Origin: a virus
Lineage: Duplodnaviria; Caudoviricetes
Length of the DNA: 64,000 bases
IMG/VR virus record: IMGVR_UViG_3300012662_000008
Coordinates: 1-64,000 of that record
Direction: 5' to 3' (one strand)
Shown: positions 3,043 to 14,683 of the stretch, in pieces
Layout of the letters: every line of letters begins with the position of its first letter
How positions within the stretch are numbered: position 1 is the first letter of the stretch
The notes under the pieces: model-generated
Database searches by the model: none
Told to the model about the DNA's origin: nothing
The model's input: only the letters and a program-made list of their open reading frames with translations
Translations under genes and position numbers: made by a program

Positions 3043-3783
3043 ATGGCTATTACGCTACCTACTTCAAAAATTCCAGCAACAACACAAGATCCTAAGTACC
3101 TGATACTCTTTGGGTTACCGAAAGTGGGAAAGACAACAATTCTCTCCACACTTGAAGGAAATCTAATTTTGGATTTTGAGAACGGCTCTGACTACGTCTC
3201 CGCTCTTAAAATAAAGGTTAATACACTTAAAGACCTTAACGAGATCTGTGCTGCAATTAAAGAGGCTGGATATCCTTATAAATATATAACGATTGACACG
3301 ATTACTGCCGTTGAAGAAATGGCAAAACCACTTGCGATAAAGCTCTACCAAGATTCTCCAATGTTTTCTGAGAAATATGCAAATGTAAAAGATCCTGCAT
3401 CGCTACCAAATGGATCTGGTTATGCTTTTTGGAGAACTGCAATCGAGAGGGTAATTGATAAAATTGCGGCTTGTGCTCCAAATCTTATTATATGCGGGCA
3501 TGTTAAGGACGCAGCACTTGCTGAAAATGCAAACGGATCTCTTAAAACACTTGATCTTACAGGAAAGGTTTCTCGCATACTCGCAGCAAAGTCTGATGCA
3601 ATCGGTTTCGTACATAGGGACGAAGATAGCAATCTCTGCATACAGTTTGGTACTGATGGAGAAGTTCTCACAGGAGCTAGACCACAGCATCTTGCAAATA
3701 AAGATATTATTGTAGCTGAGCGGGCTGAAGATGGCTCTTTTGTTCCACATTGGGATAGAATCTACCCTAGTCTTGCACAGTAA
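3043..3783 (+). CDS. AAA/P-loop ATPase (AAA_24/Sak4-like recombination ATPase)
   Basis: Walker A GLPKVGKTT, LILDFENG, ITIDTI, IICGH. Typical position next to SSB. Confidence 0.8.
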   Translation: MAITLPTSKIPATTQDPKYLILFGLPKVGKTTILSTLEGNLILDFENGSDYVSALKIKVNTLKDLNEICAAIKEAGYPYKYITIDTITAVEEMAKPLAIKLYQDSPMFSEKYANVKDPASLPNGSGYAFWRTAIERVIDKIAACAPNLIICGHVKDAALAENANGSLKTLDLTGKVSRILAAKSDAIGFVHRDEDSNLCIQFGTDGEVLTGARPQHLANKDIIVAERAEDGSFVPHWDRIYPSLAQ

Positions 3784-4142
3784 TGAATATCGACATTTCT
3801 CCTATAATTGTAGTTAACACAGAAAGTCCAACAGATATTGATCTGACTGATGCAATTGTAGAACTAGGAGATAACAACTTGGTTTTGTCGAAAGATGCAA
3901 TAAAAGCACTTTCGGTGAAACCAAAAGATAAAATTGCAATTAATTATTGGACAGTTAATAGCGAAACCACATTTCCTCTTATTGGACGTGCTGAATGGTT
4001 CGGTTCTGATGAAGGAAATAAATTAACAAAATCTGGTACTATTTCGTTTCGGGGTGAACAGAACAAAGTTCTGCGCGAATATGGTACTTCTTTCAAAATG
4101 GAAAAGTTTAAAGACTTTTACAAATTAACCCCAAAAGTATAA
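3783..4142 (+). CDS. Hypothetical protein
   Basis: 119-aa ORF coupled to the previous gene by a TAATG overlap. Confidence 0.7.
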   Translation: MNIDISPIIVVNTESPTDIDLTDAIVELGDNNLVLSKDAIKALSVKPKDKIAINYWTVNSETTFPLIGRAEWFGSDEGNKLTKSGTISFRGEQNKVLREYGTSFKMEKFKDFYKLTPKV

Positions 4143-4161
4143 TTATTAAAATTTTTTAAAA

Positions 4162-4818
4162 ATGAATTTTGATTTTTCAGATGCAGTAAATGCAAAAGAG
4201 TCTGGTTCTAGATTGACTCCAGGAATTAAAGATGCTACTTTCGAGGGTGTAGAGTTTGCAAATGTAACTAGTCAGAAGACTGGTGATGCTTTTAAGACTC
4301 TCGTTCTCAAAGTAAACATTGATGGCTACGGTCCATATCAGCAGAACTTTTTCGAGCCTCAGTCAGCAGAGCGTCAGGAAATGCAGTGGGGTAAGTCAGC
4401 ATCTCCGCTTGATCATTTTAAGATCACTGTAATGGAAATCCTTGAAGCGATCTGTCCAGAAGTTGCCGCAGAAATTAATGCTGGCACAAAGAAGCTCACC
4501 GGCAATTTTAAGCAAATTGTTGATGCAATTGTAACCTACACTAAGCCTCATATTGGAAAGAAGACCCAAATTAAGCTCATACCTGGCAGAGACAATTATT
4601 GCAATATGCCATCTTTCACTGCGCGTATTGATCGCAATGGCAATCTCGGTATTGCTACACGTATTATTGGTGATAATCTCACTCTTACTAGCTCGGAGGT
4701 AAAGAAGATCGAGAATGCTGCTACAGCAAAGCCTACTAACATGGCTACTTCTACTGCCGATGTAGTTTCTGCAATGGCAACAGACCTTGAGGATCCTGAT
4801 TCGGATCTCCCGTTCTAA
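4162..4818 (+). CDS. Putative single-stranded DNA-binding protein
   Basis: Acidic C-terminal tail ending DPDSDLPF; lies between the ATPase and primase. Confidence 0.7.
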   Translation: MNFDFSDAVNAKESGSRLTPGIKDATFEGVEFANVTSQKTGDAFKTLVLKVNIDGYGPYQQNFFEPQSAERQEMQWGKSASPLDHFKITVMEILEAICPEVAAEINAGTKKLTGNFKQIVDAIVTYTKPHIGKKTQIKLIPGRDNYCNMPSFTARIDRNGNLGIATRIIGDNLTLTSSEVKKIENAATAKPTNMATSTADVVSAMATDLEDPDSDLPF

Positions 4819-9120: not shown

Positions 9121-9866
9121 TGGAAATTACATTAGAAGGGCTAAGTGCGGGGAAACCAACAATAATTAAAAACAACGAATTTCTTGAAACAAAAGAATAT
9201 ACAGAACCTTTTATAACTGAACTGAAAAAGTACACAAACAAGTTTATTGTTAATGTACAGACTCCTGATCAAATGACAATTACTGGGTCTGGAAAAGACC
9301 TGACATATAATAGAGTTTGGGTACAAGCCATTGTGCCAGGTGAATCTGAATATAAAGAAACTTACAATCTCGTTTATGCACTAGATACGCGTGTTCCTGT
9401 TTATAAAGTGTTTCGAGCCTATATGAATCCAGTTTCAAAGAATCTATATACTTTTACAAATAACTGATTAATAGCTAAAGAGTTAAAACCAAATGAAAAA
9501 CTCGAATATGATATTAAAGAGTTGTTTGGAGCAGTAAATGATCTTGAGACAAATATGCGAAAATTAAAATCGTCGTTTTTACCAACAGATAAAAAACAGA
9601 AATTTCTTGGAGAACTGATTGATAAAGTCCTTGTTTATGAAAGTAAAACTCTAAATGGGAAAATAAAGCTTTCAAGTAATGATATTATAAAGGCCTATGA
9701 ATCAATATATAACAATAGTGGGTCACCTTATTATATATCTGAAAACGAGGAATGTTCCATGTTCAATTTTTATGATGCAATATGTGCACAAATAACAGGA
9801 ACAAAAGATTTTGTGAATCGGTTTGAAAAAACAATGTTAATTAATAACTTATTTCAATTATGCTAA
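9120..9866 (+). CDS. Conserved hypothetical protein (possibly DUF932-like)
   Basis: Track ORFs 9120-9467 and 9522-9866 are in frame and join across TGA 9465-9467. The family assignment is tentative. Confidence 0.7.
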
Positions 9867-12392
9867 CAGTTAAAAAGCGAAGTGGACAAGTAACAGATTT
9901 TAATTTTGGAAAGATTGAGAAGGCAATTAGGAATGCTTTTGCAGATCCAACAGTTCGAGTAAAAGACAGAGATAATTGCGACAAAGTAGTAGATCACGTA
10001 AGATGTTGATTTAATGCCTATGAGGGAGAACAACCCATAGATGTAGAAAGTATCCAAAATCTCGTTGAAGATGTAATAATGAATTTTGGAGAATGTGATG
10101 TTGCTAGATGTTATATTTTGTATAGAGAGAAGCATAGGGAAATTCGAGAAAATGTAGAAAGAAACTTACAGTTTATAGAAAATTTTATAAAATCGGATAA
10201 TACCGCAAACGCAACAATTGATGATAACTCCAATGTTAGCAACCACAATATTGCAGTTCTTAACGCAGAAATTCATAAAGAGAACAACCAGCAAACTAAT
10301 TATAGAATGCTTGAGAATGAATTGCGGAGACTCTATCCAGATTTTGACTACAAACAAATGCTAACTGATTTTAACACAGTGGCTTATCTGCATGACTCTA
10401 GTTCTCAAATTGGTATGCCATATTGTGTTGCTATTACAATGTATCCTTTTCTCTTAAAAGGTATTAAGTCTCTTGGCGGTCTTTCTGCAAAACCAGAGTC
10501 CTTAGAAAGTTTCTGTGGCATTTTTATTAATATGATTTTTGCCATTGCTGCCCAGTTTAAAGGAGCCGTGGCCACTCCTGGTTTTTTGCTCTGTATGGAT
10601 TGGTTCTGTAGAAAAGAGTGGGGAGATGATTATATAAATAACTTGGATAAAGTTATTTCACTTGGAAACAAAAATAGAACAATAAAAAAGCAAATCCTCC
10701 AATATTTTCAACAAATAACATATAGTATCAATCAGCCTGCATCGGCACGTGGGGGCCAATCTGTTTTCTGGAATATTTCAATATTCGATAAAACATTTTT
10801 TAACACAATGTATGGAGATTTCTTTTATCCAGATAACACACGACCTATATGGGAAACGTTTAATTGGCTCCAAAAGGAGTACTTGCATTGGTTAAATCAA
10901 GAGCGTTTAAAGTGCCTTTTAACGTTCCCGGTAGTTTCTGTTGCCCTTATATATAAAGATAGCCAATTCGACGATCCTGAATTATATGATTATACATGCC
11001 AGGAGTATGCCGAGGGAAATTCGTTTTTTACTTATATAAATGACTCCCCGGAAAGTCTGAGTTCATGTTGCCGTTTAAGCTCTAAAATCTCAAAGCCCCA
11101 GTTTAATTTTACAAATGGACAAATAGGTGAGCAGACTGGGTCTGTAAACGTGATAACTCTTGATTTTAATAGAATTATCCAAGATTGGTACAAAAATCTA
11201 CAATGTGATGTTACTGTAGGAGAAAAATCCGGAATGGCATCTCCGGCTTTTGTTAGAAGTTTGTTATATACAGATGAAGAATTACGGCAATCACTACAAG
11301 ATTATATAATAACTATTTTGGAGAGGATATATAAATACCAAATTTCTTACAAATCGTGTCTTACGAGGTTATATAATGCTGGATTGTTAACTGCCTACTC
11401 GGCCGGGTTCATCGATCTTAAAAAACAATATCTTACTACTGGAATTAATGGACTGAATCAAGCTGCTGAATTTCTTGGGATAAAATGTAACAAAAATTTG
11501 CAATATGAAAAATTCTGCAATTTAATTTTTAGTACAATTAAGGAACAAAACGAACTCCATAAATCTAAAGATATTATGATGAATACGGAGTTCACACCGT
11601 CAATGTTCGTGCGGTGTATAAATCTCTTTTAATTGACTCGAAACTCCTAATATAGGACAACGAGGCGCAAGCAGGATATTTCCGTGCAGCGTGAGAGACT
11701 AAATAAAGAGACTACAGAAATGTAGATGTAATAGTCCGAACTCTATGGCAACATAGAGAGTTAATTAGAAATAATTAACCGTTTAATACATAAAATTTTA
11801 TATACTTTTATTTGGATTTTTCCTGGAAAATATGGTCCAAACCGTGATTTATTTTATGTATTAGATCTGCCTTCACCAATTGAGGAATTAAGAAAATTAT
11901 TCTCAGAAGGCGTGTAACAGAATTGGCGAATCCGCCTCTATTAAGTTATATAATAGAGATAAAAAGGACGGATATTGGGTTCCTGAAGACACTAATTTAT
12001 ATGCAAGTTATATTTATAAACCGAACGATGAAGAAATTTCTATATTGGATAAAATTTATTTGCACGGTAAAAACTTTTGTGGAGATAATTTGGATGGAGG
12101 TTCTGCAGCCCATCTAAACATCGACTCGCATTTAACGAAGGAGCAATATAAAAAGCTCCTAAAATATGCCGGTGATGTTGGCTGTAAGTACTTGACTTTT
12201 AATGTTCCCAACTCCGAATGCCAGGATTGTGGTTTTATAACAAAAGTTCCAATTGTAAAATGTCCAAAGTGCGGTAGCAAGCATATAGATTACTACGATA
12301 GAGTGATCGGTTATTTAACTAAAATAAAAAATTGGAGCGCTGGAAGGCAGCAGGAACAAAAAACCAGAGTTTATTCACATATAACAGACTAA
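9860..12392 (+). CDS. nrdD: Anaerobic (class III) ribonucleotide reductase, spliced (exon 1 9860-11600, exon 2 11926-12392; ~735 aa)
   Basis: ATP cone MLTVKKRSG…KIEKAI (TGA at 10007), PYCVA, SSCCRL finger loop, CxxC…CxxC, glycyl-radical RVIGY. The junction reads NTEFTP-C-ESASIKLY. Confidence 0.92.
11601..11925 (+). mobile_element. Group I intron in nrdD (325 nt, no intact ORF)
   Basis: P1 ACACCGT/GCGGTGT with U.G at the splice site, P10 GTTCGT/GCGAAT, P3 TCTCTTT/AAAGAGA, P7 GACTA/TAGTC, terminal G11925. Splicing restores the frame. Confidence 0.9.
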
Positions 12393-12393
12393 T

Positions 12394-13437
12394 ATGCCAA
12401 GAAATAGTAATTTAACAAAAGCTAAGAAAGCAGCTAACGACGAGTTTTATACACAGATCTCAGACATCGAAAAAGAGTTAATTCATTATAAGGATTGATT
12501 TAAGGGGAAGATTGTTTATTGCAATTGCGATGATCCAGAGGAAAGTAATTTTTGAAAATTTTTTGAGTTGAATTTTGAAAATTATGGCCTTAAAAAGTTA
12601 ATTGCAACACATTTTGATGCAAAACAGCCATCATATAAGCTTGAACTACAAGCAGATATAGATGGTGATGGCAAAATAACTAAAAAGGATATCGTTAAAA
12701 CGCCACTGAAGCAGAATGGAGATTTTAGAAGCGAAGAAAGTATTGAACTTTTAAAGCAATGTGACGTTGTCGTAACGAATCCACCGTTTAGTTTATTTAG
12801 AGAGTATGTTGCACAATTAATGAAGTATAATAAAAAGTTTTTAGTTATTGGAAACCAAAACGCGATAACGTATAAGGAGATATTTCCGTTAATTAGAGAT
12901 AATAAAATATGGCTTGGAAATCGAAAAATGTCTCCTTGGGAATTTCGTATTCCCGATACTGCTACCGAGTGAAAACGACAAGATTCTTCTGGAAAATATG
13001 CAACATTAGGCTCTGTTTGTTGGTTTACAAATTTACCAGTGAAGCGCTTTAATGAAAAGATAATACTTACCAAAGAATACGATCCTAAGAAATATCCAAA
13101 ATACGATAATTACGATGCAATAGAAGTAGGAAAGGTGTTAGATGTTCCAAAAGATTATAGGGGTGTCATAGGTGTGCCTATTACATTTTTATATTCTTAC
13201 AATCCAGATCAATTTGAAATTGTCGCTCTTGGAAACTCTAGGGAAAATTTTACACCAAACAAGGATTATATCAATCCCAAAAAACACACATCGAATGGGA
13301 GAATTTCAAACGGAAATGCAATTAATTGTGTTTTAGCAATAAATACTGCTCATTTACCAACAACAACTTATTATACTTCAGATAATTCTGATTATTTAAT
13401 TGCGCCATATGCTAGAATATTAATTAAATTCGTTTAA
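12394..13437 (+). CDS. EcoRI-family adenine-specific DNA methyltransferase, TGA-recoded, with invertible 3' end
   Basis: NDEFYT, YCNCDDP, SNF(W)KFF, GDFRSEE, VVTNPPFSLFREY, CWFTNL, YPKYDNYDAIEV, GVPITFL, YNPDQFEIV, PYARILIK. In-frame TGA at 12496, 12553, 12970. Confidence 0.9.
13205..13225 (+). repeat. Left 21-bp inverted repeat of invertible segment
   Basis: CAGATCAATTTGAAATTGTCG is the exact reverse complement of 13543-13563 and contains the internal dyad CAATTT-G-AAATTG. Confidence 0.9.
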
Positions 13438-13561
13438 TTAAAAGTCTTGCATACGGATCCTTTTTACAAACAGATGACAATGATAATTGTTTTGGTTTGG
13501 GTTTTCCTTGTGCAACAATTGTGAAAAAATGTGGATTAATATCGACAATTTCAAATTGATC
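13424..13561 (-). other. Silent alternative C-terminal cassette of the methyltransferase (45 aa + stop, no start codon)
   Basis: Minus strand reads DQFEIVDINPHFFTIVAQGKPKPKQLSLSSVCKKDPYARLLIKRI-TAA. It shares the DQFEIV and PYAR(I/L)LIK ends with the expressed C-terminus. Confidence 0.88.
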
Positions 13562-13563
13562 TG
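13543..13563 (-). repeat. Right 21-bp inverted repeat of invertible segment
   Basis: CGACAATTTCAAATTGATCTG is the reverse complement of 13205-13225. Confidence 0.9.
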
Positions 13564-13594
13564 TTAGACACTTCTCGTCGATAAAAAGTTTAAA

Positions 13595-14683
13595 ATGAAA
13601 ATAGATAAAATAGAAATTACCTTAAAAGACCTTTCTGGAGGTTATATGAACTCCGATGAAGAAGGCGTTTGGGGTTATGATAAAAAATTAAATATACGAC
13701 CTGCATACCAACGTGAGTTCGTGTACAATGACAAGCAGCGTGATGCCGTTATTAGATCGGTACGCGCTGCTTTTCCGTTAAATACGTTTTATTGGAGTAA
13801 AAACGAAGATGGAACGTATGAACTACTTGATGGACAACAGAGAACGTTGTCTATCTGCAAGTACATTAATGGAGATTACTCCATTGATCACCAATACTTT
13901 TTTAACTTAACTCCAGAAGAACAAAATGCAATTTTAGATTATAAAATCGATGTTTATGTTTGTTCTGGCACGATTGTTGAAAAGCTCGACTGGTTCAAGG
14001 TTATTAACATTGCTGGTGAGAAATTAACTGACCAAGAATTGCGAAATGCTATATATACTGGTCCGTGGATTAATGATGCAAAACGTTATTTTAGCAAACA
14101 ATTAGGTCCGGCATATAACTTGGCAAAAGATTATATGAAAGGTAGTCCAATTAGGCAGGAATATCTCGAAACAGTACTTGATTGGATTTCTAATGATGAA
14201 ATTGAAAATTATATGGCCAAACACCAACATGACCAAAATGCCAATGAAATCTGGTTATATTTTAACTCGGTAATTACCTGGGTTAAAGCAATATTTCCAA
14301 ATTACAGGCGAGAAATGAAGGGCATTGATTGGGGCAGGTTATATAATATATATAAGGCCGAAAAATATAATACAGCCGATCTTGAATCTGATACAGCAAA
14401 GTTAATGATGGATGATGACGTTACCAAGAAGGCTGGAATATATGAATATCTGCTTTCTGGAAAAGATAACGAAAAAGTACTGAATATACGTGCGTTTACA
14501 GAAAGCCAAAAACGTACTGCTTTTGAAAAACAAAATGGTGTTTGCCCAATTTGTGGCAAGAAATTTGCCATTACTGATATGGAAGCAGATCATATAACTC
14601 CATGGAGTGCTGGTGGAAAAACAAATACAGGCAATCTCCAAATGATCTGTAAATCTTGTAACAGAACAAAATCGAATAAATAA
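13595..14683 (+). CDS. DUF262 (GmrSD/ParB-like) domain + C-terminal HNH endonuclease
   Basis: RPAYQREFVY, LLDGQQR, FKVINIAGEKL. C-terminal CPIC…EADHITPWSAGGKT…NLQMICKSCN. Confidence 0.88.
   Translation: MKIDKIEITLKDLSGGYMNSDEEGVWGYDKKLNIRPAYQREFVYNDKQRDAVIRSVRAAFPLNTFYWSKNEDGTYELLDGQQRTLSICKYINGDYSIDHQYFFNLTPEEQNAILDYKIDVYVCSGTIVEKLDWFKVINIAGEKLTDQELRNAIYTGPWINDAKRYFSKQLGPAYNLAKDYMKGSPIRQEYLETVLDWISNDEIENYMAKHQHDQNANEIWLYFNSVITWVKAIFPNYRREMKGIDWGRLYNIYKAEKYNTADLESDTAKLMMDDDVTKKAGIYEYLLSGKDNEKVLNIRAFTESQKRTAFEKQNGVCPICGKKFAITDMEADHITPWSAGGKTNTGNLQMICKSCNRTKSNK

Follow-up and report, generated by a model that had tools for sequence, protein, structure and literature searches.

A phage methyltransferase gene with a probably invertible 3' end

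We analyzed the opening 64 kb (the window) of a 166.5-kb phage contig from IMG/VR (IMGVR_UViG_3300012662_000008; estimated completeness, 95%), in which the gene for an EcoRI-family DNA adenine methyltransferase contains an inverted repeat that brackets the 3' end of the gene together with a silent, oppositely oriented alternative to it. We conclude that the locus is probably a two-state gene-altering programmed inversion inside the methyltransferase gene, and likely a switch of the methylated motif. According to this proposal, recombination between the two 21-bp arms of the repeat (the DQFEIV codons and their inverted copy) would flip a 359-bp segment, such that a constant part of 277 residues would be joined in frame either to the tail expressed in the current orientation (tail A; 70 residues) or to the tail that is now silent (tail B; 39 residues), with the nuclease gene downstream left untouched by the flip. 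The tails form the last part of the C-terminal domain; the two forms of the enzyme would methylate different DNA motifs, and the phage population would gain two protection patterns against host restriction systems. No dedicated invertase was found in the genome; the flip would be made by short-homology recombination, possibly with the Sak4-like recombinase of the phage, or by a host enzyme.

The arms of the repeat are the 21-bp sequence CAGATCAATTTGAAATTGTCG and its exact reverse complement (Table 1), and the identity between them runs on to 26 nt at 92%. The left arm encodes residues 271-277 of the methyltransferase. The repeat is the sole perfect inverted repeat of at least 16 nt with a spacing of no more than 1000 nt in the 64-kb window, and 30 first-order Markov shuffles of the window yielded no comparable inverted repeat; the repeat is therefore beyond chance. 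The arm sequence occurs exactly twice in the 166.5-kb genome, and the segment, counted with both arms, is 359 bp long.

On the minus strand, translation from 13561 to 13424 gives DQFEIV, then 39 further residues, then a stop codon. This silent cassette is intact and has no start codon, and no promoter-like site was found directly upstream of it on its own strand. Tails A and B converge, with their 3' ends overlapping by 14 nt (13424-13437). Both have the QFEIV strand at the start and the YARILIK strand at the end, and they have unrelated middles. A frame check establishes that flipped tail B joins the first 277 residues in frame. The locus thus has the two features of a gene-altering programmed inversion, namely repeats that bracket the 3' part of a gene together with an opposed, promoter-less alternative, and an in-frame product upon inversion. 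An earlier reading of the window from its letters alone (the sequence-only reading) had described the perfect 21-bp inverted repeat around 359 bp, on which sequence and repeat finder agree, and a start-less minus-strand cassette, which translates exactly as claimed. It had also called the locus shufflon-like, a term that has to be given up: a shufflon of the R64 type has at least three repeats and several segments, and two arm copies with one silent cassette make a two-state device, not a shufflon.

The methyltransferase frame (12394-13437) is open only if TGA is read as tryptophan; it contains three in-frame TGA codons, and the standard bacterial code breaks it. Under TGA=Trp, the product (P0001) has 347 aa and matches Pfam family PF13651 (EcoRI_methylase) over residues 6-302 (E 3e-118; 395.5 bits, against a cut-off of 26.4) and the PADLOC model MTase_II over residues 4-281 (E 4.7e-107). 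The catalytic (D/N)PP(F/Y) motif is present as TNPPF at residues 128-132. By profile, motif, and modelled Rossmann fold, the gene encodes an EcoRI-family N6-adenine DNA methyltransferase, with N6-methyladenine as the predicted product. The family given by the sequence-only reading accordingly stands, with the correction that the gene cannot be read under the standard bacterial code. Genome-wide, there are a single EcoRI-family methyltransferase gene and one silent cassette.

Sister phages carry the segment in both orientations

L108 and L109, two phage contigs (117 and 162 kb) that come from separate sequencing runs, match the window in gene order (nrdD, methyltransferase, nuclease) and are ~81-86% identical to it in nucleotide sequence. 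L108 and L109 are colinear with each other over 5.9 kb at ~99% identity, save for a 275-bp segment that lies between 20-bp arms CAGAACAATTTGAAATTGTC. In this segment, one contig is the exact reverse complement of the other (0/275 mismatches, as against 177 in direct comparison), and the flanks differ by 9 and 2 mismatches per 1000 nt. The tail that is expressed in L108 is silent in L109, and vice versa. The assembler cannot have created this flip, because the arms are shorter than assembly k-mers.

Two further comparisons give the same result. Between L103, in which a tail designated I is expressed and tail B is silent, and L104-L106, in which tail B is expressed and tail I is silent, 268 nt are 96.6% identical when inverted; between L097 and L107, a 262-nt segment is 96.2% identical when inverted, with flanks at 92%. 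The homology of the window to both L108 and L109 extends on either side precisely up to its own two arms. We conclude that the homologous segment of sister phages occurs in both orientations in nature (L108/L109, L103/L104, L097/L107). The sequence-only reading had proposed that inversion would fuse the silent cassette in frame and leave the nuclease untouched, and that flipped alleles should be sought in related genomes; the three flipped pairs bear out the proposal.

Table 1. Coordinates of the methyltransferase switch and adjoining features in the 64-kb window
Feature	Position	Strand	Basis
Left arm of inverted repeat, codons (P)DQFEIV	13205..13225	+	Sequence, repeat finder
Expressed tail cassette A (ALGNSRENF...PYARILIKFV + stop)	13226..13437	+	Translation
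Silent tail cassette B (DINPHFF...PYARLLIKRI + stop)	13424..13542	-	Translation; intact, no start codon
Right arm of inverted repeat	13543..13563	-	Sequence, repeat finder
Invertible segment including arms	13205..13563	.	Homology to L108/L109 breaks exactly at both arms
Predicted EcoRI-family N6-adenine DNA methyltransferase, current allele with 70-residue tail A	12394..13437	+	PF13651, PADLOC MTase_II, AlphaFold2 model
Constant part: catalytic Rossmann domain and first half of C-terminal domain	12394..13204	+	Homologue alignment, structural matches
Conserved right flank, arm to nuclease start, first letters TTAGAC	13564..13594	+	Comparison with relatives
DUF262 (GmrSD_N)-HNH nuclease, 362 aa, outside invertible segment	13595..14683	+	Pfam, PADLOC REase_II

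The same architecture recurs with different cassettes

At least nine phage lineages, which differ in their pairs of cassettes, have an expressed tail followed by a convergent, start-less tail. Perfect arms of 18-21 bp are found at the same codons in the window, in three IMG/VR phages that include a 344-kb jumbo phage (L033, L060, and L064), and in L091, L097/L099, L104-L106, and L108/L109; L103 has the same architecture with imperfect arms (19/21). The contigs L088 and L098 break off within the silent cassette, ~60 nt beyond the stop codon of the methyltransferase gene. Silent cassettes are open from QFEI to the stop codon in all cases but L107, which has a frameshift.

The silent cassettes are also conserved as coding sequence. 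Comparison of two silent B copies with each other gives a ratio of nonsynonymous to synonymous substitution (dN/dS) of 0.16 at a dS of 0.52, further silent-cassette comparisons give 0.10-0.24, cassette B of the window gives 0.10-0.21, and expressed tail A gives similar values. By these ratios, the silent cassettes are functional coding sequence under purifying selection.

The two arms are identical within each genome and different between genomes: the window has GAT, L033 has CAA (Gln for Glu), L097 has ATCCTA, and L064 has CAG, in each case in both arms alike. By its pattern, this within-genome identity is the signature of repeated exchange between arms, that is, of concerted evolution.

The sequence next to the right arm is conserved as well. 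In most switches, among them those of distant jumbo phages, the hexamer TTAGAC (GTCTAA on the cassette strand; window 13564-13569) is found at a distance of 0-3 nt from the outer end of the right arm, and never at the left arm; the position was checked in L033, L060, L064, L091, L097, L103, L104, and L108, of which L033 has GTTAAT instead. Window positions 13545-13644 are 93% identical to L091, despite the presence of a different downstream gene in L091.

Comparison of L091, L102, and L103 with L104, L108, and the window shows two phage backbones that share, at 94-98% nucleotide identity, the methyltransferase gene together with its invertible segment and ~100 nt of right flank. In the first backbone the unit adjoins terminase, without the nuclease; in the second it adjoins nrdD, with the nuclease. 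Being common to two backbones, the methyltransferase-switch unit moves as a module.

Tails are interchangeable modules

Close homologues of the window methyltransferase are 80-85% identical to it over the first 277 residues and diverge completely past QFEI(V/L). Tails of the A type are also expressed in the homologues P0002, P0016, and P0136 and in many bacteria of the candidate phyla radiation (CPR), and the type of the silent tail B of the window is the expressed C-terminus of P0024, P0141, P0155, and P0173. Two of these, P0024 and P0141, are natural proteins that join the same N-terminal part to tail B. Within the 90%-identity cluster of P0006, seven tail types follow N-termini that agree in 266-273 of 273 residues (97-100%), and the 148 homologues together have ~21 unrelated tail families. 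The same tail families are present in methyltransferases of bacterial genomes from distant phyla. These alignments indicate that tail exchange among phages far outpaces the evolution of the rest of the gene. No second cassette was found in 67 bacterial or archaeal loci with a recognizable tail and at least 300 nt downstream, a weak absence, the search having been motif-based.

One further phage locus (L013; IMGVR_UViG_3300010365_001248, 3200-4800) has a second EcoRI-family methyltransferase gene, which ends in '...EIPMDY' and is followed by two small tandem open reading frames (ORFs) in the same direction that start with MKTYKIKIKNP, contain GVPITF.DKYNP.QFEII, and have different tails. By its layout, this appears to be a split enzyme, the C-terminus of which comes as two separate, alternative modules.

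What recombines the arms

Several observations weigh against the proposal that the segment is a motif switch operating in this phage, and we take them up here and in the following two sections together with the alternatives that they favor. The first concerns the length of the arms: 18-21 bp is little for general homologous recombination and would be more in keeping with a site-specific enzyme. That a site-specific recombinase, from the host or in the form of an unrecognized phage protein, acts on the arms in place of short-homology recombination is a serious possibility, to which we nonetheless give somewhat less credence. Consistent with this possibility, the arms are sharply bounded, those of most examples contain a 13-bp palindrome CAATTTGAAATTG, most switches have the conserved GTCTAA immediately beyond the right arm, and the record of L064 (fragmentary; 23% complete) contains a small serine recombinase 50 kb from the switch. 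However, the arm sequences vary between lineages outside the QFEI-constrained codons, the hosts of the lineages probably differ, because TGA=Trp is confined to one group, and nearly complete phages that carry switches have no serine or tyrosine recombinase. Specifically, searches of the 95%-complete genome for serine (PF00239), tyrosine (PF00589), and large serine (PF07508) recombinases found no match, and the 93%-complete jumbo phage that carries L060 has no serine or tyrosine recombinase. The absence of a recombinase, which the sequence-only reading had stated for the window, therefore extends to the whole genome for the serine and tyrosine families, and no recombinase of these families lies in or beside the element, as one does in invertase-driven switches (Hin/Gin/Cin; Rci/PsrA/HvsR). 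In the same genome, RecT and ERF had no match and RecA had one weak match below the cut-off (E 0.017); the only recombination-related family found was AAA_24, a Sak4-like recombination ATPase encoded at 3100-3651. We conclude that the flip most likely results from recombination between short homologous stretches as the phage replicates, or else from the action of a host enzyme.

What the tail does

The proposal that the tails determine the methylated motif is based on their position. An AlphaFold2 (AF2) model of P0001 has a mean predicted local distance difference test score (pLDDT) of 89, with predicted beta-strands at residues 274-279 (QFEIV) and 341-346 (YARILIK). The modelled catalytic domain aligns with the gamma-type adenine methyltransferases M.TaqI (Z 9.6; model residues 18-276), MmeI, CamA, and M.BseCI, with structural matches that cover model residues ~10-215 and extend up to 276-287. 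Gamma-class adenine methyltransferases carry their target-recognition domain C-terminal to the catalytic domain. Residues of P0001 beyond ~280 are C-terminal to the catalytic domain, at the position of the target-recognition domain in M.TaqI-type enzymes. By this analogy, the tail most likely contributes to motif recognition, and inversion most likely changes the methylated motif.

A different account accepts the inversion as real and supposes that the tails alter stability, oligomerization, regulation, or contact with a partner such as the nuclease, and not the motif; we consider this account unlikely. It draws on the fact that sequence and fold searches of the PDB match the catalytic domain only, the C-terminal domain having no solved relative. 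Modelling of the tail-B protein P0024 (10-row alignment) gave a mean pLDDT of 58.7, with <50 for the tail, a confidence too low for use. It also draws on a second mosaic block in the constant part, described below, that could be the real recognition element. As a further point against the motif switch, a methyltransferase that changes its motif should be harmful if the adjoining nuclease were a classical sequence-specific partner, yet the nuclease is invariant. Against this account, the tail sits where gamma-class adenine methyltransferases carry their recognition domain; a set of ~21 distinct tail families, every one of them conserved between phyla in methyltransferases of restriction-modification loci, is typical of specificity modules; and switches are also present in phages without an adjacent nuclease (L091, L103).

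The second mosaic block comprises residues ~176-205 (12919-13008), between IWLG and WFTN. It is wholly different among otherwise near-identical homologues, it varies independently of the tail, and no silent copy of it was seen nearby. By its variability, the block may be another recognition element.

Search for the flip in the phage of the window

For the phage of the window itself, neither an orientation variant nor read heterogeneity was seen. Two public runs contain the phage (~half of the sampled words) as short, low-depth contigs; both leave 13212-13413 uncovered, and neither yielded any joints. Searches of IMG/VR, from which the window's own record was perhaps excluded, found neither the flipped junction nor a match to the arm sequence or to the right flank. 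A search of JGI metagenomes with the arm sequence gave five matches: two were unrelated, and three were further methyltransferases in which the same codons are used. Moreover, the silent cassette has been lost in L008, L089, L090, L100, and L102 and is frameshifted in L107, which indicates that switches in this family can freeze.

According to the hypothesis that these observations favor, the locus is a frozen relic, left over from a past recombination or from a once-active switch, that no longer inverts in this phage. We regard this as improbable. The arms of the window are perfect over 21 bp, whereas those of L103 have drifted to 19/21; the cassette is intact and has the dN/dS values of purifying selection; and recent inversion has taken place in sister phages whose arms are almost identical to these, to judge from the complete identity within the L108/L109 segment beside flanks that differ by ~1%. 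A decayed cassette in relatives, which the sequence-only reading had named as a sign against the switch, is thus found in part: some relatives have lost or frameshifted it, but most silent cassettes are intact. We conclude that the segment probably flips in this phage as it does in its sisters. That the locus is an assembly artefact or a chimera, as one might suspect of any metagenomic contig, we consider negligibly probable, because the 18-21-bp arms are shorter than assembly k-mers, such that the junctions must be read-supported, and many samples and pipelines (IMG/VR, ENA, Logan) have independently yielded assemblies with the same architecture.

Among the contigs of the public runs, one begins at 13544, where the right arm has its inner edge, and a second diverges from the window at 13171 into 25 letters that have no match in the genome. 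The contig ends at the locus (those of L088 and L098, and those at 13171 and 13544) may reflect heterogeneity, and are not interpretable at this depth.

The adjoining DUF262-HNH nuclease

The nuclease encoded next to the switch matches the PADLOC model REase_II over its full length (E 1.1e-130) and forms with the methyltransferase an adjacent MTase_II and REase_II pair. It is 94% identical between the phage of the window and both L108 and L104, despite the unrelated tails, and between L108 and L109 it does not change with the orientation. Its family has more than 8000 matches of 360-362 aa at 62-66% identity, in CPR bacteria, archaea, and Proteobacteria, a uniformity that, as far as alignment tells, is unlike that of ordinary Type II restriction enzymes. 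The possibility that the DUF262-HNH protein is the invertase was considered and rejected; L091 and L103 have switches and no adjacent nuclease gene. Since it lies outside the segment, is invariant with respect to the tail, and is dispensable for switches, the nuclease is, by these comparisons, not the invertase, and it is probably no classical partner that matches the methyltransferase through a specificity of its own.

How this conserved partner tolerates the switch is a question that the finding raises. One answer, which we regard as doubtful, is that the tail is the sole sequence-reading module and that the nuclease, having no motif of its own, is aimed or licensed through the methyltransferase, such that one 359-bp flip would retarget methylation and cleavage together. 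If so, a two-gene, Type II-like system would have a division of labor like that of Type I systems, and phages would draw on a shared library of ~20 tails against phase-variable host restriction and against competitors.

Relation to known invertible systems

Gene-altering programmed inversions are known in bacterial Type IIG/Eco57I-like, BREX PglX, and DISARM DrmMI genes (Milman et al., 2023; PMC9881135). The locus described here resembles those systems in having a long expressed gene and a short, opposed, promoter-less 3' fragment, with the same asymmetry of size, and in having repeats inside the coding sequence that allow in-frame exchange of a C-terminus that bears, or here would bear, specificity. 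It differs from them in the enzyme, which is a small EcoRI-type (PF13651) methyltransferase of a family that PMC9881135 does not mention; in its carriers, which are apparently virulent phages and not bacterial chromosomes; in its arms of 18-21 bp and the lack of any recombinase gene found in the genome; and in its cassettes, for which phages draw on ~21 families that are shuffled among them.

Invertible hsdS genes of Type I systems include those of Streptococcus pneumoniae SpnD39III/ivr and Mycoplasma pulmonis hsd, and restriction systems of Mollicutes themselves switch by inversion (PMC7672463). In those systems, as would be the case here, inversion exchanges recognition modules and gives alternative methyltransferase specificities within a clonal population. 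However, hsdS encodes a separate subunit with two recognition domains, usually has a tyrosine recombinase adjacent to it, and yields a result that methylase and nuclease share, whereas the module here is the tail of the methyltransferase itself, with two states and no adjacent recombinase. The locus is also not a Type I hsdS inverton in composition (HsdS with hsdM and hsdR), its neighbor being a DUF262-HNH protein and not HsdR.

Among phages, the inversions of Mu (G/Gin), P1 (C/Cin), and p15B (Min) are tail-fiber switches with a dedicated serine invertase. These systems and the R64 shufflon (Rci) share with the present locus a mobile element, an invertible segment, and an in-frame swap of a C-terminus. 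They differ from it in that they alter host-range adhesins and use an invertase or Rci, defined sites, and, for Gin/Hin, an enhancer, whereas no such recombinase gene is found here; and the R64 shufflon has several segments, whereas there is one here.

Intragenic invertons also recode proteins in gut bacteria (Chanin et al., bioRxiv 10.1101/2023.03.11.532203). In the cases given in the text searched, inverted repeats inside the coding sequence recode the protein, as here, but the genes are bacterial, and recognition tails of phage methyltransferases are not among them. A literature search found no description of an invertible recognition tail in an EcoRI-family or a phage-encoded methyltransferase.

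Inversion switching is thus known for Type I systems and, recently, for Type IIG, BREX, and DISARM systems, in all of which it is a trait of host defense; here it is borne by phages. If the tails set the motif, phages would hedge their anti-restriction methylation as hosts hedge restriction. Tail-only allele pairs such as that of L108/L109 would then be ready material for mapping how EcoRI-family methyltransferases read DNA, and the cassette boundaries, which run from strand to strand, would suggest a simple means of swapping specificity experimentally.

Genome setting and host

One close homologue of the methyltransferase is labelled as a 'Mollicutes bacterium' metagenome-assembled genome, which fits the TGA=Trp code and suggests the host group; the hosts of the phage are probably Mollicutes-like. 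Among GenBank phages there were distant matches only; of these, MT835503 has no silent cassette, and the enzyme of an Anaeroplasmataceae phage is a larger fusion. The nuclease gene has no TGA codon and adjoins a methyltransferase gene that has three.

Upstream of the methyltransferase gene lies nrdD (anaerobic ribonucleotide reductase), which is in two pieces in the window (9860-11632 and 12045-12392). Rfam searches over 11400-14000 gave no match (E <= 0.1), in the nrdD insertion or elsewhere in that interval. Compared with the uninterrupted nrdD of L088, L104, and L108, the window gene contains an insertion of ~343 nt (~11585-11927), and at the same place L089 and L107 have a 310-aa HNH_3 ORF. 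By this comparison, the insertion looks like an intron, present with or without a homing endonuclease.

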